Part shown: positions 28,064 through 45,342 of the stretch, one piece after another
Layout of the letters: each line of letters begins with the position of its first letter
Numbering within the stretch: position 1 is the first letter of the stretch
Virus record (IMG/VR): IMGVR_UViG_3300042879_003566
Location: 1 to 64,000 of that record
Direction: 5' to 3' (one strand)
Length of the DNA: 64,000 bases
Source of the DNA: a virus
Notes under the pieces: model-generated
Databases searched by the model: none
Told to the model about the DNA's origin: nothing
Seen by the model: the letters and a program-made list of their open reading frames with translations, nothing else
Made by a program: the position numbers and the translations under genes

Positions 28064-28253
28064 GGCTTGATTTGTGTTGGAATGGTGTTACGGCTAATCA
28101 GGCAATAACCATCAGCCGTTTTGAAAGTGTGATTGAAGTTTATTGAGTGTGTAGGCCAGCAGCGCTGCGGCTGCTGTCCAAAGAAGATCACGGACAACAG
28201 AAGTAATGCTTGAAAGAATGAAGTCGAACATTGGATGGTGTGGTTAAAAAGCT

Positions 28254-28280
28254 GGTCAGTTTAACGTCATGACCAGGACG
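28254..28280 (-). promoter_or_regulatory. H-type RNA pseudoknot, copy 1
   Basis: CGTC-CT-GGTCA-T-GACG-TTAAAC-TGACC. Confidence 0.7.
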
Positions 28281-28285
28281 GAGAC

Positions 28286-28768
28286 TCAAGCTGACGTTTC
28301 CGCCGAGTCGTCGAAGCAGTCTACCAGGTCTGTCAAGCCAACCTTGGTGACTGTTACAAGGTTTGCAATGTAATCCGTCAATGCTTCAACCTTGGCATTG
28401 ACAGAGTCCAGTTTTTCGGACAGTTCTTCGCGACTTGGTGAAATAAAGTCAAGGGTTTCTTCTTTGAAGGTGTCAGGGTTTTCTTTGCGTTGAATCTTGC
28501 GGGCGTCATCGTTTGTTGAATAGAGAACATCGGTAAACAAATCGTATTTAGTTTTTTCAGAAGGCTTGGCATAACCAAAGTCCTTTGCACATTTTTCAAT
28601 GGCTTTGTCAAATTCAAAATACAAGTACAGCAAATGTGCTGCTTCTTGCAAGAACAGATCCTTGTAGCGGTCAAACTCAAGGCCGTAAGTATCAAGTGAC
28701 ATGGGGAAAATCGACATCAATGGCGGTTTGTAAAGCTTTAAGGACAAAGTCCTGCTGGTGTTGTTCAC
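28286..28768 (-). CDS. Hypothetical protein (start uncertain)
   Basis: ORF in the early-arm run. Confidence 0.5.
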   Translation of the reverse strand: MNNTSRTLSLKLYKPPLMSIFPMSLDTYGLEFDRYKDLFLQEAAHLLYLYFEFDKAIEKCAKDFGYAKPSEKTKYDLFTDVLYSTNDDARKIQRKENPDTFKEETLDFISPSREELSEKLDSVNAKVEALTDYIANLVTVTKVGLTDLVDCFDDSAETSA

Positions 28769-29069
28769 CCCAGCTGGTCCATTCTGCTAGATCTGGGTCG
28801 GTATCGTCCCACTCAATGTGGATACAACACCCACCATCGTCTTCTTCAATCACCTCTAGCTGCAGCTTCGTTATCCAAGTGTTGTTCGACATGGGCAATC
28901 AACATGTTTTGAACATAGTCTTCGTGATGCATCCTAAGGTCTGCAGCCATCTTTACAAGTTCCCAGTGAGTGTCTTCTGGAACTTCAAGGTCATAGCGTT
29001 GGTAGTTGCTCATGAAATTAACAGTTGGTTGCGTTGCAAGTTGACGAGCGTATTCAAGGATGTCGTCAG

Positions 29070-30005
29070 TCATTTTTTGGTTGTAGTTTTGAGTTGAGGC
29101 AAAGCAACACCTGGGAAAGGCACGTAGCCTGACTCCAGCATGTTATCGAACAAAGTCCAGGCATCATGCTGGGTGAACACCTCCTTTGGTTTGTAGGTAC
29201 GCCAGTGGGTTAGCGGTGCTTGTGCACCATGTTTGGTGTGCAGCAACAAGAAACGTCCATCCGTAATGGCATCCGACGGTGGTGCATACCACCAAGCCAC
29301 ACACTTATCAGGTGCGTAGGCAGGACAGGCATTGCGTACTTCAGTACGTTTGCACAGAAGATCTCTGTATTTGTTGAACCAAGTCAGGTGGATGCACCAA
29401 GGTTTGAACCCTTGGATCTCTTGTTGGAATTGCGATAGATGATTGAGCTGACGCTGAAAGGACCCACACGAGCAGCTAGGTTCGCCAAAGCTGGACCGTT
29501 GTTCATTCTCATCCAGTTCAGAGTCCATGTCAACGAGCCGATCCTCAAGCCGAAACCCGTCCGGTGCAACCAGATATCCAAGGTCGGTCTGGTCAGACTG
29601 AAGTACGGCTTTGAGCTGGTCTTGGTCTGAAAGGCGAATGAACTTGTCTGCCCACTGGGCTTGGAGACGAGCGTTAACGGTGTGCGATCCAAGGGCATGA
29701 ACGTAGCTCCATCCTTTGAACATAACGTAGGCATTCTGATTCCAGATACTTGGACCCCTGTAATTGGGGCCAAGGTAAGCAAAGAAATCTTTTAGCCTGT
29801 TGGTAAAAGAAACAAATGCTTCTTTTATTGGTTGGCGTGGATAATCAACTTTGCTACCGTCACGGTAAAGCACACGGCAAAGGTCATCAAAAAGATAGAT
29901 GCCCGTGACATCGGCTTCATTGAAGTCCGGGAACGCACGGCGTATATTCGTCCGTGTGTAGATGAACGTTTGAGCTTCATTAAGTTCAAGCAGAGTTTCA
30001 GTCAT
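29070..30005 (-). CDS. SWIM zinc-finger domain protein
   Basis: CSCGSF...WCIH. Confidence 0.55.
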   Translation of the reverse strand: MTETLLELNEAQTFIYTRTNIRRAFPDFNEADVTGIYLFDDLCRVLYRDGSKVDYPRQPIKEAFVSFTNRLKDFFAYLGPNYRGPSIWNQNAYVMFKGWSYVHALGSHTVNARLQAQWADKFIRLSDQDQLKAVLQSDQTDLGYLVAPDGFRLEDRLVDMDSELDENEQRSSFGEPSCSCGSFQRQLNHLSQFQQEIQGFKPWCIHLTWFNKYRDLLCKRTEVRNACPAYAPDKCVAWWYAPPSDAITDGRFLLLHTKHGAQAPLTHWRTYKPKEVFTQHDAWTLFDNMLESGYVPFPGVALPQLKTTTKK

Positions 30006-30316
30006 AGCAGATTGGTGTGGTGTGAAATGTGTCAGATGAACAGATCGGGATCTTGTCCTGACCGCTGGAGCTTAACACGTTCTTGTTCCTTGAGGTAGGC
30101 GGATTTACCAACCTTGTAGGTTGCGTAGCCAAGTGCTGCCCAGGCAACGGGATTACCAAGGACAAGAAGTGCACCGGCTCCAATGGCGCCAAATGTTCCT
30201 GCAGTTTTAAGAACTGCTTTGTGCTCTGGTTTCATGAGGTGATTGTTAATACATTTGGAAAAAGATAAACGGTGTTTACTATAGAAGTAAAATTAAGTAA
30301 CAATTGAATACATTCC

Positions 30317-30580
30317 ATGGATCAAATTAAGTATGTGTCGCTGTCTCAATTCCAAATCGAACCATCGTTAGACGATAAGTTTTGGGAAGAGAAGCTAAAG
30401 CGCACAATCCAGGAATGTAATTCGGTTAGTGCATTGAAAGAAATAGCGACCCTCTTAGCGAGGATCGCTACCCAAAGACAAGGTGTAATAAGGGGATTGG
30501 TACAAGATATGTTCATCTTTAATAACGTTGCCGTTAATCAAGATGATCTTGCCAACCCCCAGGTTGAATCAGATCAGTGA
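30317..30580 (+). CDS. Possible NblA-like phycobilisome degradation adaptor
   Basis: SLDDKF...IQE..S...LKE...LL....QR..IRGLV helix-loop-helix pattern; own AT-rich promoter; antisense to neighbours. Confidence 0.35.
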   Translation: MDQIKYVSLSQFQIEPSLDDKFWEEKLKRTIQECNSVSALKEIATLLARIATQRQGVIRGLVQDMFIFNNVAVNQDDLANPQVESDQ

Positions 30581-31669
30581 ATCGTCTTCACCGGTCATTG
30601 GATCACGGGCAGGCAAAGCCTTGACTTCGACATCCGTGGTGCGGGACACAGGAAGAATCTCAACACCAGCCTTGATTCCATAGGCACCGCCAAGCTTTTC
30701 AGCATCTTGCCGTGCGTGTTGGTTGATGTAATCGCTGAACATTTCCTGGAACTTCCAGGTGGATTCACGATCTTCATCAGGAATCGAGAGGCGATTCAAT
30801 GATTCGATTGCAGTTTCCTGATCGGAATAATCAGGGATGTCAAACGATTCAATAGCGCAGATCTCAACGTTGTTGGCACCGCGCATCTCATTGGCAAGCA
30901 CCGGAGCAAAGACGGTGGTTGCATAGAACTTCTCGTTGAATGCAAGAGGAACTTCAGAGTCCAGTGCTTTGCTCAGACACTTGGACATTTCCTTCTCATA
31001 CATCTTGATCTTCTCAGACACGTCGGTGCCATTAAGACCCTTCAAAGTCAAGACCATGGGGATCTTGTGGGCACGCTTGTTGTCTTCCGTCAGGATGTAA
31101 ACAAGGTACTTGGTACGCACACTGTACTTGCGCTTGTACATCTCACCTTTGCTATTGGCAAGGTCGGATGCAATCTTATCGGCTTCAAACAATTCTTTAA
31201 CGTCTGGATCCTCAAAGGTTCCAATCGTCTGCCTCATCCCAGTTGTTTCCTCAACCATAAGGGGAGAACGTAGAAGGACTTGAAGTCGAGGCTCAGTAAA
31301 ATTGAGTCCTTCTTCCACTGAAGTATTGGGAGCCATACCAAAAGTTTGCTTGTAGTTCCAGATAAGTGAACCTTTAGCAAATTGATCTTCAGTGGCGTTC
31401 CATCCACAAGTGTCAAGGTCTGACTTCCGCACGAACCAACCTCGTGTCTTGGATTTGTTGAGAGGTTGGATGGTGACGAGATTCTGGTATCCGGACACAA
31501 ACTTTTTATCTTGGAAAAGTTTGAAGGAATCCAGGCCACGGGTGGCAAGAGCAGAGGTTTTCTTCATGGTCAAAGTCGTAGTAGGTTTCTTGGGAGAAAA
31601 GGAATCAACTTTGGATTGGAGTTCATCCATCCAAGCTTCATCCATCATGTCAACAGGAGTCGTTGTCAT
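30569..31669 (-). CDS. Hypothetical replication/recombination-associated protein
   Basis: Large ORF next to SSB; acidic C-terminus. Confidence 0.6.
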   Translation of the reverse strand: MTTTPVDMMDEAWMDELQSKVDSFSPKKPTTTLTMKKTSALATRGLDSFKLFQDKKFVSGYQNLVTIQPLNKSKTRGWFVRKSDLDTCGWNATEDQFAKGSLIWNYKQTFGMAPNTSVEEGLNFTEPRLQVLLRSPLMVEETTGMRQTIGTFEDPDVKELFEADKIASDLANSKGEMYKRKYSVRTKYLVYILTEDNKRAHKIPMVLTLKGLNGTDVSEKIKMYEKEMSKCLSKALDSEVPLAFNEKFYATTVFAPVLANEMRGANNVEICAIESFDIPDYSDQETAIESLNRLSIPDEDRESTWKFQEMFSDYINQHARQDAEKLGGAYGIKAGVEILPVSRTTDVEVKALPARDPMTGEDDSLI

Positions 31670-31692
31670 GGTTGGTTCGTAGTAGAACAACA

Positions 31693-31718
31693 GATGCTTT
31701 TAACGTCATCCCAGGACG
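31693..31718 (-). promoter_or_regulatory. H-type RNA pseudoknot, copy 2 (stem 2 degenerate)
   Basis: CGTC-CT-GGGA-T-GACG-TTAAAA-GCATC. Confidence 0.5.
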
Positions 31719-31768
31719 GGCGCCTAGTCTAGGAGTGACCAGGCGCTATGGAACATCAGCGTTTGTTA

Positions 31769-32584
31769 TCAAAACGGTGCGTTGTCGTCATCTTTGGATG
31801 GGCTGCCGTATTGACCAGGGAGATCAGGCAGTCCGCTTTCACCATGACCCCAAGGATCAGGTTGTTCATCCATAGTGCGACCACCCCACAGTGAACCAAC
31901 ATTCCCTTCGGATGCAACAGTTGTTTGGGGCTGGATCGGAGCGGAACCATCGACTGCCTTGGGAGACAGCGTCATCTTCTTAAGTTCGATCTTAGTTTGT
32001 ATTTTCTTTTCCCTTGAATCTTTATCGATCCAGGAATCAGTAACCAGTCGACCCTTAATTGTTAAGCCCGTTCCTTTGCGGGTGAAGTTACACAGAAGTT
32101 CTGCGTAGTTAGGCTTATCTTCTGCGTTGTTAATTGCGTAGAAGTTAAAGAGATCAGATTGATTGCGACCAGTATTAACCGCAAGGGTTTGGTTGCAGAT
32201 CATCAAACCACTTGGTGTGGTTTTAAAAGCACGTTCATCTTCGTGGTTGACATCTTTGACGCAACGTCCACTAAGGATGACAGTGTTAAGAATCGGAAAT
32301 GTCTCTGCATTAACCATGCCAATGACACCACCATGCAAAGAGAGTTGCCTGGTATCTAAGTCATAGCGGAGCGTGGAATCATGCAGGTAAATTCCCATGT
32401 TCTTTTTCATGCGAGCAAAACGTTCAGCCGTCTTGCCGTAGATGTTAAGTTCGATGGGAGTGTCTGCTTTCTTAGCGCCGACAGCCGGTAGGCTAATCAT
32501 GCAGCGCATTGCAGTTGAGTTGGCGCCTGTAAAAACTTCCCGAGGATCTTCAAGAAGTTGAGCGCAACCAGCAAAGAAATTCAT
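31769..32584 (-). CDS. ssb: Single-stranded DNA-binding protein with two OB folds
   Basis: LNTVILSGR...KGTGLTIKGRL...W.DK; acidic tail ending DDDNAPF. Confidence 0.75.
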   Translation of the reverse strand: MNFFAGCAQLLEDPREVFTGANSTAMRCMISLPAVGAKKADTPIELNIYGKTAERFARMKKNMGIYLHDSTLRYDLDTRQLSLHGGVIGMVNAETFPILNTVILSGRCVKDVNHEDERAFKTTPSGLMICNQTLAVNTGRNQSDLFNFYAINNAEDKPNYAELLCNFTRKGTGLTIKGRLVTDSWIDKDSREKKIQTKIELKKMTLSPKAVDGSAPIQPQTTVASEGNVGSLWGGRTMDEQPDPWGHGESGLPDLPGQYGSPSKDDDNAPF

Positions 32585-32604
32585 TGCAAGAGAAGTAGGG
32601 TGGA

Positions 32605-32631
32605 AGGCAGTTTAACGTCATACCTGGGACG
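32605..32631 (-). promoter_or_regulatory. H-type RNA pseudoknot, copy 3
   Basis: CGTC-CC-AGGTA-T-GACG-TTAAAC-TGCCT. Confidence 0.7.
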
Positions 32632-32642
32632 GGTCCATAGAT

Positions 32643-34466
32643 TTAGTGGGTATCAGACCAAGTCTTACCAACTCGGGAGTCACCTTCAATCAAGCATTGA
32701 AAGTTAAAAAACTCCTGGGCCTGGGGGAATGAAAGCATAGCTTGCTCCCTGATTTTTTCTGTGTGATCTGGATGGCATGCAATTTGGATTTCATCATGCA
32801 CCATCAACAGCTGCTCCCAGTCTTGACCGTAGACCAGACCAAGGTTTTGTTCAATGTTTTGTTGCGTAAAAACAACAACTTGTTTCATAAGGATTGCACC
32901 TGCGGATTGCAGGAGAACATTCAATCCTTTGAACGCAGAGCGACAATGCAGAACGCGACGATCAAGACCACGCAAATAACCCCGGGATCCAATAGTTTCA
33001 TCAATCTGTTGTTTAAGTTTCTTTAATGCAGGTACACCTTTCATGAATGAATTGATAGCATTACTTCCCAGTTGCCGGAGAACTAATTCATCCTTTTCAT
33101 CAGGGTCGATAATGGTACCAGCCTTGGCAGCACCACATCCGTAAAGCATTCCATACAATAACCGCTTACTAATATCACGAGTTGCTACGCCAAACTGCTC
33201 TTGGTTATACGTATGGATATCAATTTCCGGGTTAACAACTAGAGAAGCATACTCTCCGTTGTCCCAAAGGGCCAAGTATCCAGCAAGGCAGCGCAGCTCA
33301 AGTGCTTTAGCGTCAATACCAATGAGGTCCCACCCGTAAGGAGCATGGAATAAATTGCGACATTCCTTTCCATATGGGGAGTAAGACGCAGGCACTTGGC
33401 CCATGTTTGGATTACGGTGTGCGCACCGCCCAGTGATGCAACCGTTAGTAATAAGGTCGCCGTGGATACAGCCAGATTCGTTGTTGAACAACTTGATCCA
33501 AGCATTGTTGCCATCTGCAATTTGACCAAGACGTTTTTTGACCAGCATGTATTCTGCCAATGGCTTGGCTTCTGGGAAAGGCAATGTCTCTAATACCTCA
33601 TCATTAAGGATTGGATTTCCTTTCTCAGTAGTTTTTTCTGGTCGCCATCCGTACTTCTGCGCAAGTCGATTAGCAATCTGGTCACGAGATCCAGGATTGA
33701 ATTCTTCAATGCAGACTTTTTCAAATGGGACACCTTTGACATAGCCACGGGTTTTGTTGTTGACCTTGGGAGTAAACCAAGAGCGATGTTCAATAGGCGG
33801 GAAGACTTTCTTTAACTCGTCTTCAAGTTCTTTTTGTCTTGTGCGTAGTACATCCACAAGATCAAAAGCTGCATCAAGATCAAAAGGAACACCTGATCTA
33901 ACTTGTCGATCAATTGCAAGCGCAAAGTCGTGCTCCAGTTTGAGCGCCGCCTCTGGGTAGTGTTGCTTGCAGATGTGTTCCCAAAGTTTCTTAGTAACTT
34001 CCACGTCTTGGATGCAGTACTTAAGCATCTCTTCTGAATAGACGGAGAAGTCCTTGAAGTTGATCTTATGATCGGCCAAGCGCCATCCCCACGCCTTAAG
34101 CGATGCGGATCCACGTAGGTTCGGTGAAACCTGCGAATATTGTTCGATGTCAAGGTCATAGAGAAGTTCTTTGGGCCAGATCAATCGTGTGCAAATGAGT
34201 GTGTCAATGATGCGTGATTTGCATGTGAATGAATGTAGTTTTTGTAGGACTGGAATGTCATAGAAAATAATATTGTGCCCGATCAAAACATCAGCGGTTG
34301 CCAGATGAGCAAGAGCATCAGCAATGTGATCAGGCCCATAAGTAAAAGTTTGTTTGCGTCCAATGTCATAGAGAACAATGCAGTGGATAACTGTGACAGC
34401 ATCATAAAGATTGTCAGACTCAAGGTCAAAGACCAACCAGGTTTCACTTACGGAATCTGGCTTCAT
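32643..34466 (-). CDS. polA: DNA polymerase family A (T7-like, 3'-5' exonuclease plus polymerase)
   Basis: VFDLESD; GHNIIFYD; YCIQDV; DAKALELR; RDISKRLLYGMLYG (Tyr at the T7 Y526 position); VHDE. Confidence 0.93.
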   Translation of the reverse strand: MKPDSVSETWLVFDLESDNLYDAVTVIHCIVLYDIGRKQTFTYGPDHIADALAHLATADVLIGHNIIFYDIPVLQKLHSFTCKSRIIDTLICTRLIWPKELLYDLDIEQYSQVSPNLRGSASLKAWGWRLADHKINFKDFSVYSEEMLKYCIQDVEVTKKLWEHICKQHYPEAALKLEHDFALAIDRQVRSGVPFDLDAAFDLVDVLRTRQKELEDELKKVFPPIEHRSWFTPKVNNKTRGYVKGVPFEKVCIEEFNPGSRDQIANRLAQKYGWRPEKTTEKGNPILNDEVLETLPFPEAKPLAEYMLVKKRLGQIADGNNAWIKLFNNESGCIHGDLITNGCITGRCAHRNPNMGQVPASYSPYGKECRNLFHAPYGWDLIGIDAKALELRCLAGYLALWDNGEYASLVVNPEIDIHTYNQEQFGVATRDISKRLLYGMLYGCGAAKAGTIIDPDEKDELVLRQLGSNAINSFMKGVPALKKLKQQIDETIGSRGYLRGLDRRVLHCRSAFKGLNVLLQSAGAILMKQVVVFTQQNIEQNLGLVYGQDWEQLLMVHDEIQIACHPDHTEKIREQAMLSFPQAQEFFNFQCLIEGDSRVGKTWSDTH

Positions 34467-34740
34467 CTTGAATTGAGAGGTCTTGACCAGAGAGCTTGTC
34501 ATTGTTCTTGTTAATCCACGCCAAGATTTGCTGCGCACCCGCACGGTACGGATGAGAGAAAATCTTGTTGAGAGCTACGTCAGAGTCTAACGGAATCAAC
34601 AGAAATTGATTGGATTTATTACACGCAGTAATGGCGTGTGGCACTCCATTTTTCCAGGTTGCAATGACGTAGCTCACGGTGAACGTTGAAAGAACGCTCA
34701 GATAATATCCGATTTATTGAGCAATGCAAGATGTGCGGAA

Positions 34741-35502
34741 TTACTTTCGATTTGATTTGCCGTATCCCACAAAGTCACCATCTTTCTTGCGTTGAGACAA
34801 CGCCTTGCTGGCTTCTGTACCAGCGCGTTGACTGCCATGTACCAGCAGTGCAAACGGCTTGTCGCCCAAGCAATGGCTATCGTCGTGATCGATTTCCAAT
34901 CCCAGCTCAGTTGCCTGCTGTTCTGTGTAGACCACATAGGCAATGCGCTTGAACACCTTGGGGTGTTTGGGAATTAGGTAATCGAGCGTACCACCATGGG
35001 ACGCAGTGAGATAGAAGTTAGGTGGAATGATGTCGGCAAGGTTAAGCCACATGCCCAACGACTTGGTGTAGGCATAGAAGGTTTGGTTGGGCCGCTCGGT
35101 TGCAGCCATGAACCAAGCCTTCATGTAGTTCTCTGTCCAGAAATCACCAGACTCATGAACCCGCACCAATTGTTTGGGCGGCATCATGGTCAAGGACAGA
35201 TCAATGAGGTCACGCAGCAGTGTGACTTGGTTGCCATTGGAATACAACGTTTCACGCAGCAAATCCCAGTTGTGCCAGCGTGCTTCCCTGACGTTGGGCC
35301 GCACTTCTGACATAGCTGCAAAGCAGCGGAACTCATCTGCTGTGGTACCAGTGGTCTGGGGCAGATCAGTGATGGTACCTGTGGCACGGTCAGCAAAGGT
35401 CTTGCAAACACCAGCGTGCGGGCAGGAGTAACCCGCTGGAAGCGAGAAGATCAAACGGTTCTTGAGCTTACCGTTACCGGTGGAAAACTTGAGGAGTTTC
35501 AT
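34741..35502 (-). CDS. Gp88-like protein (radical-SAM-related phage family)
   Basis: FSLPAGYSCP.A..C...CFA; VRVHESGDF; FYAYTK. Confidence 0.65.
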   Translation of the reverse strand: MKLLKFSTGNGKLKNRLIFSLPAGYSCPHAGVCKTFADRATGTITDLPQTTGTTADEFRCFAAMSEVRPNVREARWHNWDLLRETLYSNGNQVTLLRDLIDLSLTMMPPKQLVRVHESGDFWTENYMKAWFMAATERPNQTFYAYTKSLGMWLNLADIIPPNFYLTASHGGTLDYLIPKHPKVFKRIAYVVYTEQQATELGLEIDHDDSHCLGDKPFALLVHGSQRAGTEASKALSQRKKDGDFVGYGKSNRK

Positions 35503-35536
35503 GGTGTGGTGTGGATAAAAGATAAGCAAAGCTTAT

Positions 35537-35563
35537 GGATGAGTTTAAGGACATCCCAGGTCC
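35537..35563 (-). promoter_or_regulatory. H-type RNA pseudoknot, copy 4 (stem 1 covaried)
   Basis: GGAC-CT-GGGA-T-GTCC-TTAAAC-TCATCC. Confidence 0.55.
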
Positions 35564-35608
35564 GTTGATGTGTTACATGATGAACGACATCATATACAAC
35601 AACGATCA

Positions 35609-35632
35609 TATACTTTCCGTATCAATAGATAC
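35609..35632 (+). promoter_or_regulatory. -10 box (TATACT) followed by palindromic NtcA-type site
   Basis: TATACT 35609-14; GTATC-AATA-GATAC (GTA-N8-TAC) 35619-32, 8 nt before ATG 35641. Confidence 0.55.
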
Positions 35633-35640
35633 AGAATCTT

Positions 35641-35793
35641 ATGGAACTAACGTATCGCGGCTGCAAGTATGACAAAGGGCAACAAGCCAAGAAGGATAGG
35701 GACTGGTGGAACCTGACCCATCGCCCTTGGCTGCGCCTGACATACCGTAATATTGGATACCTTCCTTACCTGATCGGAGGTCAAATCAAATGA
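35641..35793 (+). CDS. DUF4278-like small protein (50 aa)
   Basis: MELTYRGCKY...LRLTYRNIGY: doubled LTYR(G) motif; too short for the ORF track. Confidence 0.65.
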   Translation: MELTYRGCKYDKGQQAKKDRDWWNLTHRPWLRLTYRNIGYLPYLIGGQIK

Positions 35794-35906
35794 ACAAGGC
35801 ACTGATTGTTTACTTAATTGATCAAAAGAAAAAGACGGCACGTAAGGATATTGAATCCAAACATGCCATCAAAGAATTAAAAAAACAACCGGCCTCGACT
35901 TTTTAA
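35790..35906 (+). CDS. Small basic protein (38 aa)
   Basis: ATGA overlap with the upstream gene; MNKALIVYLIDQKKKTARKD... Confidence 0.55.
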   Translation: MNKALIVYLIDQKKKTARKDIESKHAIKELKKQPASTF

Positions 35907-35919
35907 TTCCCGTTCATCA

Positions 35920-36576: not shown

Positions 36577-36578
36577 CT

Positions 36579-36878: not shown

Positions 36879-37222
36879 CAGATGTGAGTCCAAGCTTTTC
36901 GGTTAACAATGCGTGAGATGTACGATACGCTGATGCCGTATTTTGCAGAGATTGCTTGATGGTTAAAACCCCAGGCATGCATACGGCGAATATGCAGTAC
37001 GTTCTTTTCAGTCAGTACAGCATTACCGTTGTCAGCTCCACGGGCAACGTTACCAGGCCTTGGTTTACCCTTAGGAGGACCCGGCTTCAAGACTTCGTAT
37101 CGCTCAATGGTGCGGTACTTAGCATCACATGAAAGACATCGGCAATAGCGTTTAGTAAAACCAGGGAAGTGATTGGTGCAGGTGACGCGTGTGTACTTGC
37201 TTGAGCAAGACGGGCAGTTCAT
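36878..37222 (-). CDS. Zinc ribbon plus helix-turn-helix protein
   Basis: CPSC...RYCRCLSC...TIE; LTE..V..IR...ISAKYGIS...ISRI...W. Confidence 0.65.
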   Translation of the reverse strand: MNCPSCSSKYTRVTCTNHFPGFTKRYCRCLSCDAKYRTIERYEVLKPGPPKGKPRPGNVARGADNGNAVLTEKNVLHIRRMHAWGFNHQAISAKYGISVSYISRIVNRKAWTHI

Positions 37223-37581
37223 TGGGGATCAAGTGAACAGGGTGCGTTATCAATAGATTGATTACGTATTTCTGCATACTTATCTAACTGCAAAGAATCC
37301 AATAAATACAGAGTATTTTCTGGGCCAATGATCTTGAATGCATCAACAATTAGATCATGCTTACGCAAAGGGATGCGGTAGTAATCCAAAAGGATTTCTT
37401 CTGCACGATCAAAGTCATCGATGGTTCCAGTCAACCGTTCAACAACAGTGCTTGGCATGTTGTCAACAATGTTACCAACAATGGCATCGATGACTGCTGA
37501 CCAAGTCTCGGATGGAATCATCGCGATGACTTTATCAACCAAGTCAAGATCAATGGGATCGTTTTGAGACTGACTGATCAT
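37219..37581 (-). CDS. Hypothetical protein
   Basis: 120-aa acidic ORF. Confidence 0.55.
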   Translation of the reverse strand: MISQSQNDPIDLDLVDKVIAMIPSETWSAVIDAIVGNIVDNMPSTVVERLTGTIDDFDRAEEILLDYYRIPLRKHDLIVDAFKIIGPENTLYLLDSLQLDKYAEIRNQSIDNAPCSLDPQ

Positions 37582-37585
37582 AAGG

Positions 37586-37610
37586 AAAAAGCCCCCGGTT
37601 TCCCAGGGGC
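37586..37610 (-). terminator. Rho-independent terminator
   Basis: GCCCCTGG-GAAA-CCGGGGGC followed by T5; nearly identical to the terminator at 62938. Confidence 0.75.
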
Positions 37611-37631
37611 CGTCTGCACTTCTCGTGTAGT

Positions 37632-37994
37632 TTAGACCGCTTGAACCTGGGTGTCCACCACTGGTTCCATCACGCCAGCTTCTTTGAGTTTATCGAGCAT
37701 GGCGCACATGATTGTGGCGTGCTGATGGGTTTGTTCCATGAAGTGTTTGGCACGATCAGCGGTAATGGTGTGAGTACAACCATTGGGTTCGGTGTACTTC
37801 CAACTGCCATCCGGTTGAGGATCGCCTTGGAGCGCAAGGCGTTCAGAGTTGTGAACGTAGCGCAGTTCCAAGTTGTGGTAATCCTTGAGACCGTCTGGTG
37901 CAGTCCAAGTTGCACCGAGGTTGTAGCGATTGTCTTCGTCAGAAAACGCATGGAATTCAGGGATAACTGATTTGAAAGCAGCAAGAATTTGCAT
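37632..37994 (-). CDS. Hypothetical protein
   Basis: 120-aa ORF, ACC-ATG context. Confidence 0.6.
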   Translation of the reverse strand: MQILAAFKSVIPEFHAFSDEDNRYNLGATWTAPDGLKDYHNLELRYVHNSERLALQGDPQPDGSWKYTEPNGCTHTITADRAKHFMEQTHQHATIMCAMLDKLKEAGVMEPVVDTQVQAV

Positions 37995-38012
37995 GGTGTT
38001 GAGTAAGGGAAT

Positions 38013-38088
38013 TGGTACCCGAGGTGAGATTCGAACTCACGCTGGAGCGATTTTAAGTCGCTTGCCTCTTCCGCTGGGCTACTCGGGC
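38013..38088 (-). tRNA. tRNA-Leu(UAA) with short variable loop
   Basis: GCCCGAG/CTCGGGT-A-CCA; AGCGA-CTTAAAA-TCGCT; GTGAG-TTCGAAT-CTCAC; 76 nt. Confidence 0.88.
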
Positions 38089-38089
38089 G

Positions 38090-38133
38090 CACTTGGACTT
38101 ACGCTTACATCAATGGATGCATGCTGCCAAGTG
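38090..38133 (-). promoter_or_regulatory. GGCA/GTAAGTCC internal-loop hairpin, copy D
   Basis: CACTT-GGCA-(stem-loop)-GTAAGTCC-AAGTG, ending 1 nt before tRNA-Leu. Confidence 0.55.
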
Positions 38134-38355
38134 TGGTCATGGGGCAATGGCTCAGTGCCATATTCCCATGTGTCGTAGTCTTCTTCATTACGTGGATCGT
38201 CTTCGATCAGTACGTAATGCGGAGAGTTGTCATGAATGAAATCTCCGATGTTTGCCATAGCCATAGCCAGGAGTTGATCATCGGTGTAGTCGTGTTCCAT
38301 GGTGAAGGACCAGCCCTAGTATCGAGGCTAAGGCTGGTCAATTTGGCTTCGGCCT

Positions 38356-40062
38356 TTAAGAGGCTAGCTGTTCATTGCGGGTTTGCAATGCCTCATGGAA
38401 CCCTTCGGTGTATTGGTCTCGCTGATCAGGCGTCAGGTTTTGATTAGATAAACCTTTGATTTGATCAACGGACATCATGCCACCGTCAACCTTGAGTTGA
38501 ATGGTGAACCTGGGTTTACCTTCTACCATACAAAGCACAATGAAGTGCTTCTTCTTACGAACACCTTCAGCGTAACCAGAGGCAGAGCCAACGCAATTGC
38601 GTACGGCTTGACCCCACATGGCGAGCTGATGCGTGTCGTGTGGCTGGAAGAACGACCAAGTTTCACCATCAACAGATACTTTGATGGGTTCAGGGAATAA
38701 ATCCTGCGGTAGCTTTTCATTTGGATTTTGAATCTTCCATGACTCTGCCTGGACATGGTCATGGAATTCATTGATGCGCCAACGTTTGGGAGGATTTAGA
38801 TCCTTGTGCTCAAGCACGCGGTTAAGCATGTTGATTGTGTCTGACCATTCGTAGAATCCATAAACGTGTAGACCAAGGTCACGTTCCATGGTGACGTTAG
38901 AGCCATTAGCACGTACACGTTGCTGCTCTTCTTCATAGTATTTGGCAAAGATGCCAAAGAAAGAAGCAACAGGCATGTGTTGACGCAACCAATCAATAGT
39001 CTTGTCTTGCACGGCGTACGAACGAATGCGTATGCCTAGCAATTCTTGAATGTGGTTTTGATAATAATCAATGGGACAATCAGGCCAGATGCCATGAACA
39101 TAGCTAATGGAATCAACTAGTTTCTTAGCTTGATTAAAAGGTTGTTTGATGTTGACTTGTAGTTTGTTGTTCTTATCTTCATAGACAGCAATAGATTCAT
39201 CTAGTTTTTGCTGGACCCACTTACGGAAGAATGGTGTATTAAAGATGTGTTTGACATTGCGTAGTGGCAGCCAATCAAGGTATGCAGGCGTTCTTAATTC
39301 AGTAAGTGAATAGAAGTTATCAACAGTTAGCTGCCAAGTTGATTGCTCTTCTTGACTTACAAAGACAGGAGGAATCTCAAGAGCTTGGGCAATGCCAGCA
39401 CATTGAAGGCGGCTAAAAAGGAAACGGCTATCATCCCAGGTGGGAATTGATTCTTGCAAGGCTTTACTGAATTCTTCAACAGCCTTGGCAATGTTCCGTC
39501 CCTTTTGGGTATAACTACCAAGATAACGAGCACGCCATTCACGATCTTCTTTGCCATCAATGATGTCTTGACGAGTTACAAGACGACGGTCAATGAAGAA
39601 TGTTGAGCGGCCAATCTCAATCTTGTTGTAGTTATCAATGTTGTTGATGATATCGCGTGGAATTGTCTTACGTGCTGATGCAGTGTCACGGAAGACACGT
39701 GCATAGCCATAGACATACTTGTCTTCTTGGCCAGCTGGCGGCAGCCATCCGGCGTACCAACATTGTTCGAAGTGATAAAGGATTGCGCGTGTCTGGAGAC
39801 GGGCCTGCGGAGTAGCAACATCCACAGGCTTGGTAAATGAGTGGTGACGATCTGGCGCAAGCTGCGTGTTAATCGAATCAATTGCATCTTGCTGCAGTGA
39901 TTCACGCACCACGTCATAAGGAATGACATGCGGGATGTTGCCAAGGGGATACTTGGCTTTCTTGGCAGGAGATGATTGCTTTTGTTGGCGAACCAAAGCT
40001 TTGAGCTTGGGATCGTAGGCAATCAACTCGGTCTGCAAGTTTTGAGGAAGTTGGAATTGCAT
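38356..40062 (-). CDS. PcfJ-like domain protein
   Basis: EFHDH...L..WGQAVRNCVG...Y...FTIQL...QIKGLSN. Confidence 0.7.
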   Translation of the reverse strand: MQFQLPQNLQTELIAYDPKLKALVRQQKQSSPAKKAKYPLGNIPHVIPYDVVRESLQQDAIDSINTQLAPDRHHSFTKPVDVATPQARLQTRAILYHFEQCWYAGWLPPAGQEDKYVYGYARVFRDTASARKTIPRDIINNIDNYNKIEIGRSTFFIDRRLVTRQDIIDGKEDREWRARYLGSYTQKGRNIAKAVEEFSKALQESIPTWDDSRFLFSRLQCAGIAQALEIPPVFVSQEEQSTWQLTVDNFYSLTELRTPAYLDWLPLRNVKHIFNTPFFRKWVQQKLDESIAVYEDKNNKLQVNIKQPFNQAKKLVDSISYVHGIWPDCPIDYYQNHIQELLGIRIRSYAVQDKTIDWLRQHMPVASFFGIFAKYYEEEQQRVRANGSNVTMERDLGLHVYGFYEWSDTINMLNRVLEHKDLNPPKRWRINEFHDHVQAESWKIQNPNEKLPQDLFPEPIKVSVDGETWSFFQPHDTHQLAMWGQAVRNCVGSASGYAEGVRKKKHFIVLCMVEGKPRFTIQLKVDGGMMSVDQIKGLSNQNLTPDQRDQYTEGFHEALQTRNEQLAS

Positions 40063-40091
40063 GGTGAGTTCAGAGTAAGTTCGTAGTGTGT

Positions 40092-40118
40092 GAGCAGTTT
40101 AATGTCATGCTCAGGACA
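40092..40118 (-). promoter_or_regulatory. H-type RNA pseudoknot, copy 5
   Basis: TGTC-CT-GAGCA-T-GACA-TTAAAC-TGCTC. Confidence 0.7.
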
Positions 40119-40123
40119 GGGGA

Positions 40124-40381
40124 TCAGTCTAGATCGTAATCGGAGGTGTCGACGAGTTGCCAGTGAAGATCGAGCTGATCAAGATAGCAGCAGAAGCCAT
40201 CTTCATCAGTAGGGATTTGTTGTTCCTCATCCAGCTCAAAGCTTGCTGTGCAAAGAGCTGGAGCCCATTCTTCAGGTTCGAAATATGTTGCCCGATAGAG
40301 CAAACGCATTTCGTCAACCACTGCTGTAACTGTGACATTGGTACCTTCGATGATGGTGTCTTCAATAGCAAGGACAGACAT
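40124..40381 (-). CDS. Acidic hypothetical protein
   Basis: 85-aa ORF. Confidence 0.55.
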   Translation of the reverse strand: MSVLAIEDTIIEGTNVTVTAVVDEMRLLYRATYFEPEEWAPALCTASFELDEEQQIPTDEDGFCCYLDQLDLHWQLVDTSDYDLD

Positions 40382-40384
40382 GAG

Positions 40385-40582
40385 TCAGACCTGAATGAAT
40401 TGCTTGGGTTTCATGAAGTCAGATGTTGGTCCATACTTCTCGATAAGATCAGGGAATGCGTCGAGCAAACGCTGACGATTCACTGGATCTGCAACGCGCA
40501 GTGCTTGTGCAATCGATGAAACAAATGAACCACCATGTGATTGCATGAGGCAAATCATGGCGGTCAGCTGAGCTGAATTCAT
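40385..40582 (-). CDS. Small hypothetical phage protein
   Basis: M..HGGSFV..IA.A...ADP.N..RL..AFP. Confidence 0.6.
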   Translation of the reverse strand: MNSAQLTAMICLMQSHGGSFVSSIAQALRVADPVNRQRLLDAFPDLIEKYGPTSDFMKPKQFIQV

Positions 40583-40604
40583 GTGTTGAATTGCAATGGA
40601 ATGT

Positions 40605-40631
40605 AGGCAGTTTAACGTCATACCCAGGACG
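40605..40631 (-). promoter_or_regulatory. H-type RNA pseudoknot, copy 6
   Basis: CGTC-CT-GGGTA-T-GACG-TTAAAC-TGCCT. Confidence 0.7.
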
Positions 40632-40636
40632 TATCT

Positions 40637-40834
40637 TTAGAATAATTTAATGTTTCGTTTGCTCAATCCTGTGCCAGGAATTGAGAACGATCCAAGCAGT
40701 CCAGACGGACGTGCGTTGAGTGTGAATTGGATGGGGCCAAGTCGTATCGATTTGGTGAACGACTTGATGCCCCGTTCCGTGATGTTGACTCCGGCAATAG
40801 TTTTGTCGAAGTTAAAGGCTGAGCGTTCAGTCAT
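40637..40834 (-). CDS. Small protein, DUF4236-like
   Basis: KSIRLGP...SIPGTGLS. Confidence 0.5.
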   Translation of the reverse strand: MTERSAFNFDKTIAGVNITERGIKSFTKSIRLGPIQFTLNARPSGLLGSFSIPGTGLSKRNIKLF

Positions 40835-41795
40835 AACAAGAATTGGATTCGGCCAATGTAAATCTCAATTGAAAGTATTCATCTTGATCTTTGTCTTTGG
40901 CGTAGTAACGGGCTTCAAATCCACCAGAGCCAACAACGTTGTTCTTGATGGATTCTCTTAGCAAATGGCGTGCCATTGCTTTAAGTCTTGCGATGGATGG
41001 AACTGCGTGCCCATTACCTTCAGTTGTTTGCCACTGCCAGTCAACCGCTGTCATAGCAATGTAAACACGTTGAAAATCAAACGTGTCAATTACGTTATCA
41101 ATCAATGATTCTTTTGAGTCCATTAGTTGTAGATCATGTCGAGGGACAAAATGATTGCACTAAGGAATAACATGGAGCAGAGAAGGATCATCATTTGAGG
41201 TCATCAGGAAGGAGCATTTGAGTGTCTTCGTCAGACATGTTGGTCATCATGAACTTCTCTCCGTTGGGTGAAATGAAACCACCAACGAAACCAACTCCGT
41301 ACTTGTCAGCTGATTCCTTCATCTTTGCTACGAGTTGCATAGCGGATAGACGTTGGAGATCAATGGAGTCTGGGATGCGGGGAGTGTTGTCAGGCATTGG
41401 AATGAAGTGGAATGATTGATGGAGTGTAGCAGGGAATAGGGGGAGTAAACATTAGTTTATCTAATAGAATTAATGGTTCCCCCCTGGTACTCCCTGCGGG
41501 GTTGTAGGGGTTCAGCTGTGCATAGCTTGATGTTCTTTCCATGCATTGGTATGCATTTCATCCAAAGTCAAAGGCGGTTCATTGACTTCGTCTGGATCAA
41601 AGTCAGCATCAAGGTAATTCACAAGCATTGGAATGATTTCCTCTTCGAGTAAGCAATAGATGGACGGAGTGAGATGCTGGTCCATCTGATGCCGCTTCGC
41701 TTCACGTGCCATGACATCTTGGAGGATAGTCAATGCTTCACGCACGTGGACATACTCGTTTTGTTCCATGGTGTGGTGTGTAGGTTGAATGGGAT

Positions 41796-41850
41796 GACCT
41801 GGGACTTACACCATTATTGAGAAGAGTTCTCAATTGTGGATGCCCAGGTC
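41796..41850 (-). promoter_or_regulatory. GGCA/GTAAGTCC internal-loop hairpin, copy C
   Basis: GACCTG-GGCA-(long stem-loop)-GTAAGTCC-CAGGTC. Confidence 0.6.
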
Positions 41851-42681
41851 TTGTTGTGTTGCCAGAGAAATCATCTGGGATCAAGGATGATCCAGCCCGT
41901 GTAGTTATCGCTGGTGCGATCCACACGAATTAAGCGTTTCTCTTCGAGGCTTTCAATGGTGCGTATGTAATCAGCCATTCGATTTCCTTGGACCGGAATC
42001 TTTGGTACGAAACATGGAGTGTTCGCATGTTTCCTCCTGTGATTTAAGTAATACAGATAGAGATTCCGTTGGTTAATACTCAGGCTGAGTGGTGCTGAGT
42101 TGTCGATTTGCATTAGATCAATCCAAGAAGACTAAGCCAACTATCGGGATGGTCCGGTTCTACTTCGTCGTCGTCCGGTGTGAACGCGACTGAGTCGAAC
42201 GACCACTCTTCGATTTCCTCGTTGGTCGGGACATCGTACCAGCCTTGGAGTTCTTTGTCGGCGTACCGTGGGATCCAGTAGCACCGGAGGATGCCTCGCT
42301 TGTTGCGATAGACATCGCCGTTGCTTGGACGTTCGCCTTTCTCTCCGTCGTAGTTGACTTCGGCTTGGTACTGTTGGTCGAGGTCTTCTTCTGAGAAGGG
42401 GACGTAGCCGAAAGATTCGGCAATTTCTTGGGTGACGGGGTGAAGCATGAGATTAGTACCGTGATGAGGATTGAGATGAGTGCGATGACATGAATAATGA
42501 TGTCATCTTCTTGAGGACTAGGAGTCTTCGTCGTCATAGATGACGCCCTCCCACTCATCTTGATTGGATTCTGTCATTGCTTGATATTGTTCTTCTGCCA
42601 TGTCAGCCATGGCATCAAGCAAGTCAGCGTTGTAGTTGTTGTCGAGTTGAGTCATGGTTTGAATTGGTATAATGAATTGAA

Positions 42682-42726
42682 AGCCTGGGACTTACGCACC
42701 GAGCTGGCGTCGGTACTGCCCAGGCT
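42682..42726 (-). promoter_or_regulatory. GGCA/GTAAGTCC internal-loop hairpin, copy B
   Basis: AGCCTG-GGCA-GTACCGA-CGCCAGC-TCGGTGC-GTAAGTCC-CAGGCT. Confidence 0.6.
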
Positions 42727-42758
42727 ATTTGTAGTACTGACGTACTAACGGACGTGGG

Positions 42759-43256
42759 TCAAACCTTGACGTGAGACCAAGCTTTGCCCTTGTGGATATT
42801 GGAGATGGTGTGTTGGCTAACGCCGTACGCCTTACCGATCTCGATGTACGCACGATTGGTGCTCTTGAATTCCTTCATGATTGAAGGCGTTGCAAGGACA
42901 CCTTTGATCTCGCGGACATCGCTCTCGCTGAGCTTGGCATTGCAGAAGGCAGCTGGCTTAATTCTCCCGGAGAATTCGCCGCTTGTGATCTTCTTAACCA
43001 ATGCCATCTCACCGTCCTGCTGGAGAGCAGGCCGAGGCGTGGTATTGAGAACCTGACGGATGGGTAGACCAAGAGTCACAGAAGTTCCGTCTTTTATGAC
43101 GGAGATCGTGACCTTGCCTTCTCGGGTGATAACCGAGACGTGATCAGGGTTCTGGATGTCGAGTTGACTGATGGCTTCCATGAGTTGAGTGGAGTGCAGT
43201 ACGAGGATAGCTGGATGATTACTGGATGCAAGTACTAGGTCTAGTCCACAGCACAC
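42759..43256 (-). CDS. HTH-containing protein (start probably downstream)
   Basis: NAKLSESDVREIK...IGKAYGVS..TISNI..GKAW. Confidence 0.6.
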   Translation of the reverse strand: MCCGLDLVLASSNHPAILVLHSTQLMEAISQLDIQNPDHVSVITREGKVTISVIKDGTSVTLGLPIRQVLNTTPRPALQQDGEMALVKKITSGEFSGRIKPAAFCNAKLSESDVREIKGVLATPSIMKEFKSTNRAYIEIGKAYGVSQHTISNIHKGKAWSHVKV

Positions 43257-43304
43257 TCTCCCACGCCACCGGTAGTGGCGCAGGGGGGAGTGGGGACTGA
43301 CCTT

Positions 43305-43660
43305 CTACCTCATGTAGAGGTAAGAGCCTGCCCAATCAGCATTGTGGAGACAAGCTTCGTAGGAGGCGTCATCCAGTAGTTGGTAGCGGACGTGAAGAGC
43401 TGGTGCCTTCCAGCTGGCGGGCTTATAGACTGCACCTGTCTCACGTGAGACAAATGCATGTACAGATCGCCCGACACGTCCGGCACCAGAATTTGTGACT
43501 TGAATGATCTTGTAATACTTGGTACCACGAACAATCTCGTGGTTCAAGTAGTCAGGATATTCTTCACGTTGTGGATACTGCTTGTAGTAACGCTTGGTTA
43601 GTACATCGATAACGGCATTGATGCGATCTTCGATGAGCTGCGTTTTCTCAGCGAGTTTCA
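43305..43660 (-). CDS. Conserved phage early protein
   Basis: GTKYYKI...SVHAFV...G.VYKPASWKAPA. Confidence 0.65.
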
Positions 43661-43942
43661 TGTTGAGTTTGCTGTGAGTGGATCTTGGTGATGTCGACGC
43701 CCAGTGCACCGCCAATCGTTAGTGCCATTACTGCAATAGCAAAGACACCAACGAGGAAGTTGGCTATGGGCATCTCATTTCGAGAACCATAAGAATCAAG
43801 TTGAACATACTGATTCTTGCCAAGTGAGACAATGCGTTTCATTAGAATAAGAATGAAGTGAACAGAGGCAGTCCTGGGTGAGGACTGCAGAAAACCCACC
43901 GCCGATACGAATTCGTATCAACGGAAGGGTTAAGTGCAGTCG

Positions 43943-44332
43943 TCAGAAAGGAATTTCTTCCAGCGTCGGCTCAACCTTGGATTCAGCCACTGGTGTGACT
44001 GCAGGCTTAGCCTCCGGTGATGCACCGATGACAGCACGGACTCGCGTCAGTGCAATCTCTGGATATTTGAGGGCTACCAGCTGGTCATCTTTGACGTAAT
44101 GCGTGCGAATACTGGCGATCCGCACATCATACTGGACAAGGATCAGCTGCTGACCAACCACCAACGTACCGTTGTTGTAGGCAGTAAGTAGCCCGTTGCC
44201 ATTGTTGAATTTGATGCGGCAGACACCATCGAACTGGTCCTTGACATACATGGTGATCGCAAGGAACTCGCGACCTTCATGCACAGCAGTTTCCATGTAA
44301 GCAATGTTGCCGATGATTGTGTTGCTAAACAT
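43943..44332 (-). CDS. SSB-like OB-fold protein
   Basis: NTIIGNI...VGQQL...; C-terminal EEIPF. Confidence 0.45.
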   Translation of the reverse strand: MFSNTIIGNIAYMETAVHEGREFLAITMYVKDQFDGVCRIKFNNGNGLLTAYNNGTLVVGQQLILVQYDVRIASIRTHYVKDDQLVALKYPEIALTRVRAVIGASPEAKPAVTPVAESKVEPTLEEIPF

Positions 44333-44871
44333 AATCAATGTGAAGTAAGGGACTAGCAGGAATGAATCCTGCAGGAAACCCTGGTGTTACTCAGGGTTAA
44401 TTGCAAGAATCAGTTGTTAGCAAGCTGTGTATACAACTTGCGGGCACCAGCGAGTGAGAGGCTGGTGCTTTGGTCGTAACCTTTGTGACCCTTGCGGATC
44501 AACTTGGTTACATGCGCCACATTTCCCTCCGTATACACGAAGAAGAAATAGATGGCTTGGTCCGTTTCAACTGCCAGGGTCTTATCAGGGTTAGACATGG
44601 TGTGGTGTTGAATGTGCCGTGCCCATCTCGGCGTTGGGCAATGGCTGGACCAGGGATTGCACCTGGTCACTCGCTTCTACGAATCAGCTGTTGTCATGGG
44701 TAATTCACCAGTTGGTTCAATCGCCTTGGCGATCTGCACCCTGGTATTACGTATCCACATCTGAATACGTTCTTTGCTCTGGTCTTCTGCTACTACCTTG
44801 GCAGCAGCGATCAGACCAGTTGCTAGCTTGGCTCGTAACATTGTGAACTCCTGGTTAAATCAATTGAATTG

Positions 44872-44904
44872 TTTGGACTTACCCGCGCTGTGCGCGGTGC
44901 CAAA
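44872..44904 (-). promoter_or_regulatory. GGCA/GTAAGTCC internal-loop hairpin, copy A
   Basis: TTT-GGCA-CCGCGC-ACA-GCGCGG-GTAAGTCC-AAA. Confidence 0.55.
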
Positions 44905-45317: not shown

Positions 45318-45342
45318 GTTAATTCAAAGTTTGGAAAATTTA

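Follow-up and report, generated by a model that had tools for sequence, protein, structure and literature searches.

The window analysed here is the first 64 kb (64,000 nucleotides, nt) of the 80,457-bp IMG/VR virus record IMGVR_UViG_3300042879_003566, a lake cyanophage resembling Synechococcus phage S-EIV1. In the minus-strand arm of this genome (positions 28112–44904) we found small structured elements, here called modules: cis-acting RNA folds situated in the 5' untranslated leaders of some of the early and replication cistrons. Six of them are copies of a 28-nt pseudoknot (the knot) that, judged from its sequence, adopts the fold of coremin (xrRNA-C, Watson-Crick type), an exoribonuclease-resistant RNA (xrRNA) of eukaryotic RNA viruses. 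Four others share a second fold, the GGCA/GUAAGUCC module (GG module), which is unrelated to the knot and is able to take its place.

The DNA polymerase of the phage is 69% identical to its counterpart in S-EIV1 (KJ410740) and the two genomes are syntenic; Megablast against GenBank phages returned no close relative, S-EIV1 being reached by protein search only. Besides small early genes, the arm encodes a PcfJ-like protein, ThyX, GP88, DNA polymerase, the single-stranded DNA-binding protein (SSB) and DUF5895. For comparison we used 26 related IMG/VR loci with polymerase identities of 62–99%. Labels such as L006, L010, L019 and L025 denote related phage loci, and higher numbers denote other lineages or bacteria. 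All features of the window described below lie on the minus strand unless stated otherwise.

A pseudoknot with the predicted fold of coremin

All six knots follow one pattern, N-GUC C (6 nt) U GAC-N' UUAAAC (6 nt complementary to the loop). Knot 1 (40604–40631; 44.1 bits), a coremin-like H-type pseudoknot, begins 5 nt after the TAA stop at 40637–40639 and ends 20 nt before the ATG at 40583. Knot 2 (40091–40118; 41.9 bits), with stem 1 UGUC/GACA, lies 5 nt after a TGA stop and 28 nt before the ATG of the PcfJ-like gene at 40062. Knot 4 (32604–32631; 46.1 bits) is found 11 nt after the DNA polymerase stop and 19 nt before the ATG of the SSB gene at 32584, and knot 6 (28252–28280; 43.9 bits), which has a 7-bp stem 2 (CUGGUCA/UGACCAG), 5 nt after a TGA stop and 20 nt before the ATG at 28231. 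The other two belong to variant classes: knot 3 (35534–35563; 32.3 bits), of the 7-nt loop class with stem 1 GGAC/GUCC, heads the GP88 gene (ATG 35502), and knot 5 (31690–31718; 29.3 bits), of the UUAAAAG class, is preceded by a hairpin at 31720–31746 and heads the DUF5895 gene (ATG 31669). Knot 3 is the only copy in the window with a hairpin directly behind it (AUAAGC/GCUUAU), a feature often present in other phage lineages.

The original prediction had named six pseudoknots in this arm and none in the plus-strand structural arm, and both statements were borne out: a covariance model (R1) placed exactly six knots in the minus-strand arm of the 80-kb genome and seven in that of S-EIV1, and gave no further match at E values up to 1 (160 kb, both strands). 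A sequence-only fuzzy search returned 74 copies in relatives, nearly all on the gene strand and each 5' of an ATG. Among 89 distinct copies from 27 genomes, 90.9% of the stem cells were paired, compared with 75.0% in shuffles and 19–49% with slid partners, and 135 cells were changed on both sides compared with 29.7 in shuffles. Double changes occurred at 7 of the 10 pairs of the knot and at 5 of the 6 pairs of stem 2. This set of 89 copies had been selected for pairing, and two unbiased tests were therefore added, using a search pattern that omits the 3' strand of stem 2 (GTCCN5ATGACGTTAAAC) and counting a match as positive if it paired at ≥5 of 6 positions. Stem 2 paired in 89 of 100 IMG/VR matches (~3% by chance, from our own calculation) and, for bacterial genomes, in 82 of the 128 matches listed (75 of the 120 loci listed). 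Because both stems covary and the strand bias is complete, these results support the view that the module-level signal is carried by RNA, not DNA.

Conservation within the 89 copies was uneven. G6–C19 and C8–G17 are invariant, U7–A18 is replaced by A–U in 15 copies, and the bottom pair of stem 1 occurs as CG, GC, UA, AU, UG and GU. The invariant positions are G6, C8, C9, A15, G17, C19 and A23–25; in the spacer, columns 21–22 vary (UU, UA, CU, GU, AU and CA) and column 26 is mostly C. The first loop base (C) and the penultimate one (A) do not change, the second is U or C and pairs as the first base of stem 2, and the last is mostly U, sometimes A, and C in ~10 copies.

A text search with the conserved knot string led to the coremin motif GUCCGAAGACGUUAAACUAC, an Xrn1-resistant RNA of plant and fungal RNA viruses. 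Coremin (xrRNA-C) and its Watson-Crick variant xrRNA-WCC are known from beny-, cucumo-, umbra-, hypo- and chrysoviruses and other eukaryotic RNA viruses, and coremin halts Xrn1 one nucleotide ahead of hairpin 1, is a barrier to scanning ribosomes and promotes −1 frameshifting (PMC6546385, PMC10520033, PMC10321173). Hairpin 1 consists of 3–4 bp, (N)GUC/GAC(N'), in which the loop-closing C–G is required and the second and bottom pairs can be changed; the loop consensus, YGAD/YGNNAD, starts with a pyrimidine, has G as its second base and ends in A-D; in the UUAAAC spacer the AAA and the C are essential and the two Us tolerant; the pseudoknot is formed by loop bases pairing with those that follow the spacer directly, loop 1 being 1 nt long; and Xrn1 resistance needs a second hairpin (hp2) directly downstream (PMC6546385, PMC10520033, PMC10321173).

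The agreement between the phage knot and coremin extends to individual bases. All nine invariant phage positions occur in GUCCGAAGACGUUAAACUAC; the positions that vary among phages (bottom pair, U–A/A–U swap, spacer Us) are those that tolerate mutagenesis in coremin, and the phage-invariant ones (loop-closing C–G pair, loop-1 C, AAA) are those found essential. Stem 1 sequence, the single-pyrimidine loop 1 (C), the UUAAAC spacer and the loop pairing 3' of the spacer are shared, as is an intergenic position just after stop codons, sometimes in tandem, and the penultimate A of the loop matches the A-D end of coremin, with U as the most frequent last base. Unlike coremin, the knot has a stem 2 of ~6 Watson-Crick or G-U pairs rather than 2–3, a loop of 7–9 nt, and hosts (double-stranded DNA phages and bacteria) that have no Xrn1 and in which RNase J would be the target. 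The papers we consulted on coremin make no mention of phages or bacteria.

Rfam 15, including its preQ1, pistol and xrRNA families, matched only tRNAs at the gathering threshold and gave no overlap with any module at E values up to 10 over 27900–45400; 20 bacterial loci bearing the knot likewise had no match at the gathering threshold. Likenesses to preQ1-I, pistol and beet western yellows virus (BWYV) RNAs were rejected on the lack of an Rfam match, and pistol stems P2 and P3 are absent. We also rejected a stimulator of frameshifting, readthrough or bypass: no slippery sequence lies upstream of the six knots, and past the stop at 40124–40126 another stop precedes the next ATG. The in-frame continuation beyond the stop at 40637–40639 is a single case and looks like chance.

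A second, unrelated fold at the same positions

Four hairpins of the GGCA/GUAAGUCC type had been predicted, one of them before tRNA-Leu, and all four were recovered with a covarying outer helix. Module 1 (44872–44904; outer helix UUUGG/CCAAA) lies 30 nt before the ATG (44841, with AGGAG) that opens the first gene of the arm, module 2 (42682–42726; 8-bp outer helix, z score −4.97) 26 nt before the ATG at 42655, and module 3 (41796–41850; z score −3.35) 26 nt before the ATG at 41769. Module 4 (38090–38133) falls within the 3' end of the open reading frame (ORF) 38300–38079 and ends 1 nt before tRNA-Leu(UAA) (38013–38088), the 3' end of which is itself 18 nt before the ATG at 37994, that is, at a module's place. 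GG modules end 1 nt before tRNA-Leu in ~10 relatives too. The tRNA is one of ~17 modules and the only obvious processing signal among them; ARAGORN and Rfam did not detect the other modules as tRNAs.

The minus strand carries seven exact occurrences of GTAAGTCC, four of which are GG modules, and the plus strand none. Across the arms of 28 genomes, an outer helix of ≥5 bp was formed by 39 of 44 gene-strand copies compared with 2 of 53 controls. This helix is built from at least six different sequences, including UUUGG/CCAAA, CCUGGG/CCCAGG, AUGGG/CCCAU, CUAGG/CCUAG, GCUGG/CCAGC and CACUUGG/CCAAGUG, and the inner hairpin varies. GG modules are widespread across IMG/VR; literature searches for GUAAGUCC gave small interfering RNA noise only.

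In other phage lineages (L267, L271, L281, L293; L292, L302, L319, L320) the apical loop of the inner hairpin of the GG module is complementary over 7–12 nt to a strand ~25–30 nt downstream, with compensatory changes (UAAGUCUUGGCG / UAGGUCUUGGCG / UGAGUCUUGGCG; UGCAGGGG / UGCGGGGG / GUAGGGG). Such a pairing is a long-range pseudoknot of the kind seen in ring-forming xrRNAs; among S-EIV1-like phages it was not consistent. Another small fold near start codons is xrRNA-LT of the dianthovirus/polerovirus type, which lies between genes, 5–20 nt 5' of a start codon, in plant viruses and is thought to make or protect protein-coding subgenomic RNAs (PMC6299227, PMC7668246). Our modules resemble it in being small folds shortly 5' of a start codon, and the GG module of some IMG/VR lineages does so in pairing its apical loop with a downstream strand. 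Membership of xrRNA-LT (P1-J1/2-P2) was rejected for the GG module and the knot, neither of which has the UUGCAAGAG loop or the 3' AGU tail with pseudoknot strand of the published alignment.

The first stop of the 73-codon ORF at 38079–38300 comes only after the frame has crossed GG module 4 and entered tRNA-Leu by 10 nt. An RNase P cut at tRNA-Leu, if made, would leave the message of this ORF without a stop codon.

Knots and GG modules exchange in front of orthologous genes

The modules had been described as interchangeable, and the comparison of related genomes agrees. Orthologous genes were clustered across genomes and modules counted if they lay ≤120 nt from the called start. SSB was preceded by the knot in 20 cases, a GG module in 2 and neither in 4; the corresponding counts were 13, 5 and 5 for GP88, 12, 3 and 2 for the PcfJ-like gene, and 13, 2 and 11 for DUF5895. 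The cases with neither are mostly start-codon miscalls at an AUG within the knot. At the gene starting at 42655, the window has a GG module and the L019 orthologue a knot. The two folds also differ in where they tend to occur: the knot heads replication genes (SSB, GP88, PcfJ, DUF5895), and GG modules head promoter-proximal small genes.

The knot goes with the gene downstream of it, not with the one upstream. A knot heads the SSB orthologue in 24 of 26 genomes, the upstream genes belonging to 11 different clusters; for a small membrane protein gene the figures are 18 of 19 genomes and four different upstream neighbours. Behind DNA polymerase, a knot is present solely where SSB is the next gene (11 of 22).

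Several arrangements at single loci accompany this pattern. At L025:11590–11695 a tRNA gene is followed within 1–2 nt by the knot that heads the SSB orthologue. Extra units of a knot and a small ORF stand in tandem ahead of the PcfJ-like gene at L006:2430–2912, L010:3433–4179 and L018:1193–1947; cassette exchange at the repeats, which these units fit, is plausible. Between the module and the start of GP88 lies a leader hairpin (35503–35533, AUAAGC-N3-GCUUAU) that covaries to UUAUUAG.../...CUAAU and is retained behind knot or GG module alike in the orthologues of L006, L008, L009, L012, L023 and L028.

Spacing, leaders and transcription signals

In the window, the distance from the 3' end of the module to the start codon is 19–31 nt for knots, 26–30 nt for GG modules and 18 nt for the tRNA, compared with the about 20–34 nt first claimed; hairpins at 38308–38339 (7 nt) and 43237–43303 (55 nt) are exceptions. 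What had been called a fixed distance looks instead like closest packing, with ≥5 nt left after the stop and ~19–22 nt before the start. In a set of 116 non-identical knots, the gap between stop codon and stem 1 was 5 nt in 43 of 98, 6 nt in 12 of 98 and almost never shorter, and the distance from the end of UUAAAC to the ATG was 25–28 nt in 61 of 110, which places the end of stem 2 19–22 nt before the start. The stop-to-knot gap stays at ~5 nt regardless of the upstream gene and therefore looks like a packing limit.

The leaders behind the modules were C/A-rich and generally free of Shine-Dalgarno (SD) sequences, as stated at the outset. Early-arm leaders contain 13% G and 31% C with an SD-like sequence in 2 of 27, compared with 22% G, 18% C and 13 of 39 in the plus-strand arm; the early gene starting at 44841 does carry AGGAG.

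The further suggestion of one long early transcript proved an oversimplification. The gene strand has terminator-like sites at 37611–37590 and 43924–43899; a third, at 35919–35941, was assigned to the plus strand by the scan, and its stem and U run can also be read on the gene strand. Opposite-strand ORFs (35535–35793 and 30317–30580) split the arm.

Sigma-70-like promoter sites numbered 14 in the arm compared with 23.6 expected from shuffled sequence. A TAnnnT hexamer is found 7 nt 5' of stem 1 in 22 of 112 knots, where it overlaps stop codons. A sigma-70 promoter or −10 box before each knot was rejected as a minority feature overlapping stop codons, and elements like the promoter-early stem-loops of T4 were rejected on the same counts (14 versus 23.6 promoter-like sites; TAnnnT rightly spaced in 22 of 112). 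The sequence TTGACA-N7-TAGACT is conserved 5' of the knot heading the small membrane-protein gene (28318–28336, and in L009, L012, L019 and L031); its hexamers resemble −35 and −10 boxes, and the 7-nt spacing misfits a sigma-70 promoter.

Occurrence in other phages and in bacteria

Hundreds of unrelated phages share this knot, as do bacteria from many phyla. No tRNA stands next to the knot in 29 of 30 loci from other phages. Stem-2-positive bacterial knots, among the matches listed, come from Bacillota, Omnitrophota, Planctomycetes, delta-proteobacteria, Actinomycetota and others, and the listed matches in Vibrio, Alteromonas, sphingomonads and archaea all fail the stem-2 test. As a hint, the distribution among the listed matches is compatible with what we take to be the phyletic spread of RNase J.

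The chromosomal knots of Omnitrophota, Planctomycetes, Moorella, Desulfoscipio and others lie behind, or overlap, the 3' end of a mini-ORF of 20–30 codons with the conserved terminus ...(Y/F)MLRPVAHCKEGC... (for example, L229:6070–6147, L203:6849–6926, L226:3013–3153, L186:4065–4157 and L223:7500–7583). The mini-ORF stop is the UGA within the knot's AUGAC in most such bacterial copies, and the next gene often starts with MKLITR.TDYA, which presumably marks an Rrf2-type regulator.

The classical tetraloop form of coremin, followed by UAC and a hairpin, was present in 48 small IMG/VR contigs. Its core was also seen in large DNA-phage contigs (47–116 kb; L377, L399, L401, L407 and ~20 more loci), where the context is fixed: TTTAAAATTAT GTCYGAAGACGTTAAAC ATTTAAC or ACTAATG.

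A proposed roadblock function and competing explanations

We see an even chance that the modules are 5'-side roadblocks, probably against RNase J, that shield single cistrons. This function is favoured because cyanobacteria possess RNase J, a 5'-exoribonuclease, and a flaviviral xrRNA blocks bacterial RNase J1 in vitro. Each fold would be a mechanical roadblock: RNase J, degrading 5' to 3' and entering upstream, would be halted just 5' of the fold, as might 5'-end-dependent decay, and the cistron behind would survive as a separate message. The short, unstructured, G-poor leader would let ribosomes load without an SD sequence. At closest packing, the fold would sit just outside both a terminating ribosome (5–6 nt past the stop) and an initiating one (19–22 nt before the AUG), and this placement would keep it folded. 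The coremin match fits the idea, already voiced in the original prediction, of modules protecting individually stabilised mRNAs.

More tentatively, and with somewhat less than an even chance, we propose that phages and some bacteria share the nuclease- and ribosome-stopping knot of eukaryotic RNA viruses, that the knot is one of two or more exchangeable roadblock folds in this phage family, that GGCA/GUAAGUCC is a new class of exoribonuclease-resistant RNA, and that both make polycistronic early transcripts into messages separately protected from RNase J. Such RNAs are so far known from eukaryotic RNA viruses only, and RNase J1 has been called an enzyme that xrRNAs 'never naturally encounter' (PMC5760640). 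If the proposal is true, a coremin-type fold on phage genes would extend the xrRNA idea to bacteria, provide a natural substrate for studying RNase J blocking and help explain why genes on one phage transcript differ in stability. The natural covariation constrains the unsolved coremin structure (6-bp stem 2, one-base loop 1, invariant AAA), the exchange with GG modules points to a second, uncatalogued fold with the same job, and both folds are compact parts for mRNA stabilisation in cyanobacteria.

Several observations weigh against a protective roadblock. Resemblance is all that suggests this function, and blocking of RNase J by a coremin-type fold would be an extrapolation from a flaviviral xrRNA. 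At the second loop base the knot has U or C where the YGAD/YGNNAD consensus has G, and hp2 is absent in five of the six window copies, where the C/A-rich leader that follows is unstructured. No relative of the GG module is known, and ribosomes translating the ORF around GG module 4 must cross that module. In other phage lineages the knot-to-start distance ranges over 16–100 nt, with the knot still a few nt after a stop codon or a terminator hairpin; in bacterial chromosomes the mini-ORF takes in the 5' half of the knot, which points to a role at the ribosome.

That role would be the main rival, though we regard it as unlikely: the fold would be a ribosome roadblock or insulator that stops post-termination sliding and keeps upstream translation from opening the leader, so that downstream initiation is independent and occurs at a fixed rate. 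Coremin blocks scanning ribosomes and stimulates −1 frameshifting, properties of a structure that resists unwinding by the ribosome, and the bacterial knots overlap the end of a conserved mini-ORF. The pile-up of stop-to-knot gaps at 5–6 nt coincides with the mRNA entry of a terminating ribosome, a geometry known from ribosome footprints. However, the knot tracks the downstream gene rather than the upstream stop codon, and it also occurs where no ribosome arrives from upstream, namely after a tRNA (L025) and in a promoter-proximal position without an upstream ORF (35563); the lack of slippery sequences 5' of the knots also counts against insulation.

Rather less likely again, the modules could be recognised by an endoribonuclease, whether RNase E, RNase III, RNase P or an enzyme of the phage, and early transcripts thereby be cut into monocistronic messages, the fold capping the new 3' or 5' end. 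The T7 and T3 early transcripts carry RNase III processing hairpins between genes, and processing there leaves individually stable mRNAs; our modules are similar in that conserved structures punctuate a polycistronic early region, and the GG module, a two-helix hairpin with an asymmetric internal loop, recalls what we take to be a trait of T7 RNase III sites. In mitochondria and in phage tRNA clusters, polycistronic transcripts are punctuated by tRNAs; here a module position is filled by a genuine tRNA, GG module 4 stops 1 nt short of its RNase P site, the L025 knot starts 1–2 nt after a tRNA, and GG modules or knots abut tRNAs in relatives as well as in the window. Endonucleolytic processing near the tRNA is possible. 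The differences are that just one of the ~17 modules is a tRNA and that, unlike the T7/T3 hairpins, the modules comprise several unrelated, interchangeable kinds, their cleavage is hypothetical, and the knot has no long duplex and is no RNase III substrate. Interchangeability would require one system to cut two unrelated folds, the linkage of the knot to the downstream gene speaks against its capping the 3' end of the upstream message, and no conserved single-stranded cleavage motif was seen at the modules (UAGACU 7 nt upstream in 14 of 112 copies).

We hold it improbable that the modules are operators for phage or host RNA-binding proteins that set the translation or timing of a regulon. Strong conservation of unpaired bases (loop-1 C, AAA, GCA/GUAAGU) would suit protein binding, as would the division of knots and GG modules between replication genes and promoter-proximal small genes. 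Yet the conserved bases are those that the coremin fold itself needs, knot and GG module swap at the same gene, and no single phage protein would be common to the hundreds of unrelated phages and many bacterial phyla with the knot.

Hardly credible is a role as DNA-level repeats (promoters, or recombination sites such as the promoter-early stem-loops of T4) with incidental RNA folds: it could draw on the TAnnnT hexamer 7 nt 5' of stem 1 (22 of 112 copies) and on the extra knot-plus-ORF units of L006 and L010, which suggest exchange at repeats, but it is disfavoured because both interleaved stems covary, compensatory changes in two such helices being meaningless for duplex DNA, and it is further opposed by sigma-70-like sites being fewer than in shuffles (14 versus 23.6) and by the −10-like hexamer being a minority feature that overlaps stop codons.

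Other folded modules of the arm

The remaining hairpin modules, among them those first described as a long hairpin, two bistable elements and a T-loop mini-tRNA with hairpin, do exist and fold better than shuffled sequence (z scores −2.4 to −7.3), with the final ~20 nt 5' of the ATG unpaired in each. Their orthologues fall outside the set of loci, and the 'bistable' elements there are represented by the two paralogous window copies only. The long imperfect hairpin (41429–41497; z score −4.13) ends 31 nt before the ATG at 41397. At 44616–44668 (z score −2.40), 17 nt before the ATG at 44598, two hairpins are adjacent, the first with a 7-bp stem and a 7-nt T-loop-like loop. In 'bistable' element 1 (44356–44408) a central UGCAGGA can pair with either the 5' or the 3' arm, and the lowest-energy and centroid folds differ; element 2 (43865–43941; z score −7.30) contains the 11-bp terminator-like hairpin at 43924–43899 followed by a U-rich run. 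Both exceptions to the spacing named above are hairpins as well, one long and G+C-rich (43237–43303; z score −2.43) that follows a stop at 43305 and precedes the ATG at 43181, the other of 12 bp (38308–38339; z score −4.24) before the ATG at 38300.

The first early gene is preceded, after an intrinsic terminator at 45317–45298, by a 500-nt non-coding stretch (44842–45342). It holds GATTGATACGAATTCATATCG, a near copy of the palindromic hairpin core at 43899–43924.

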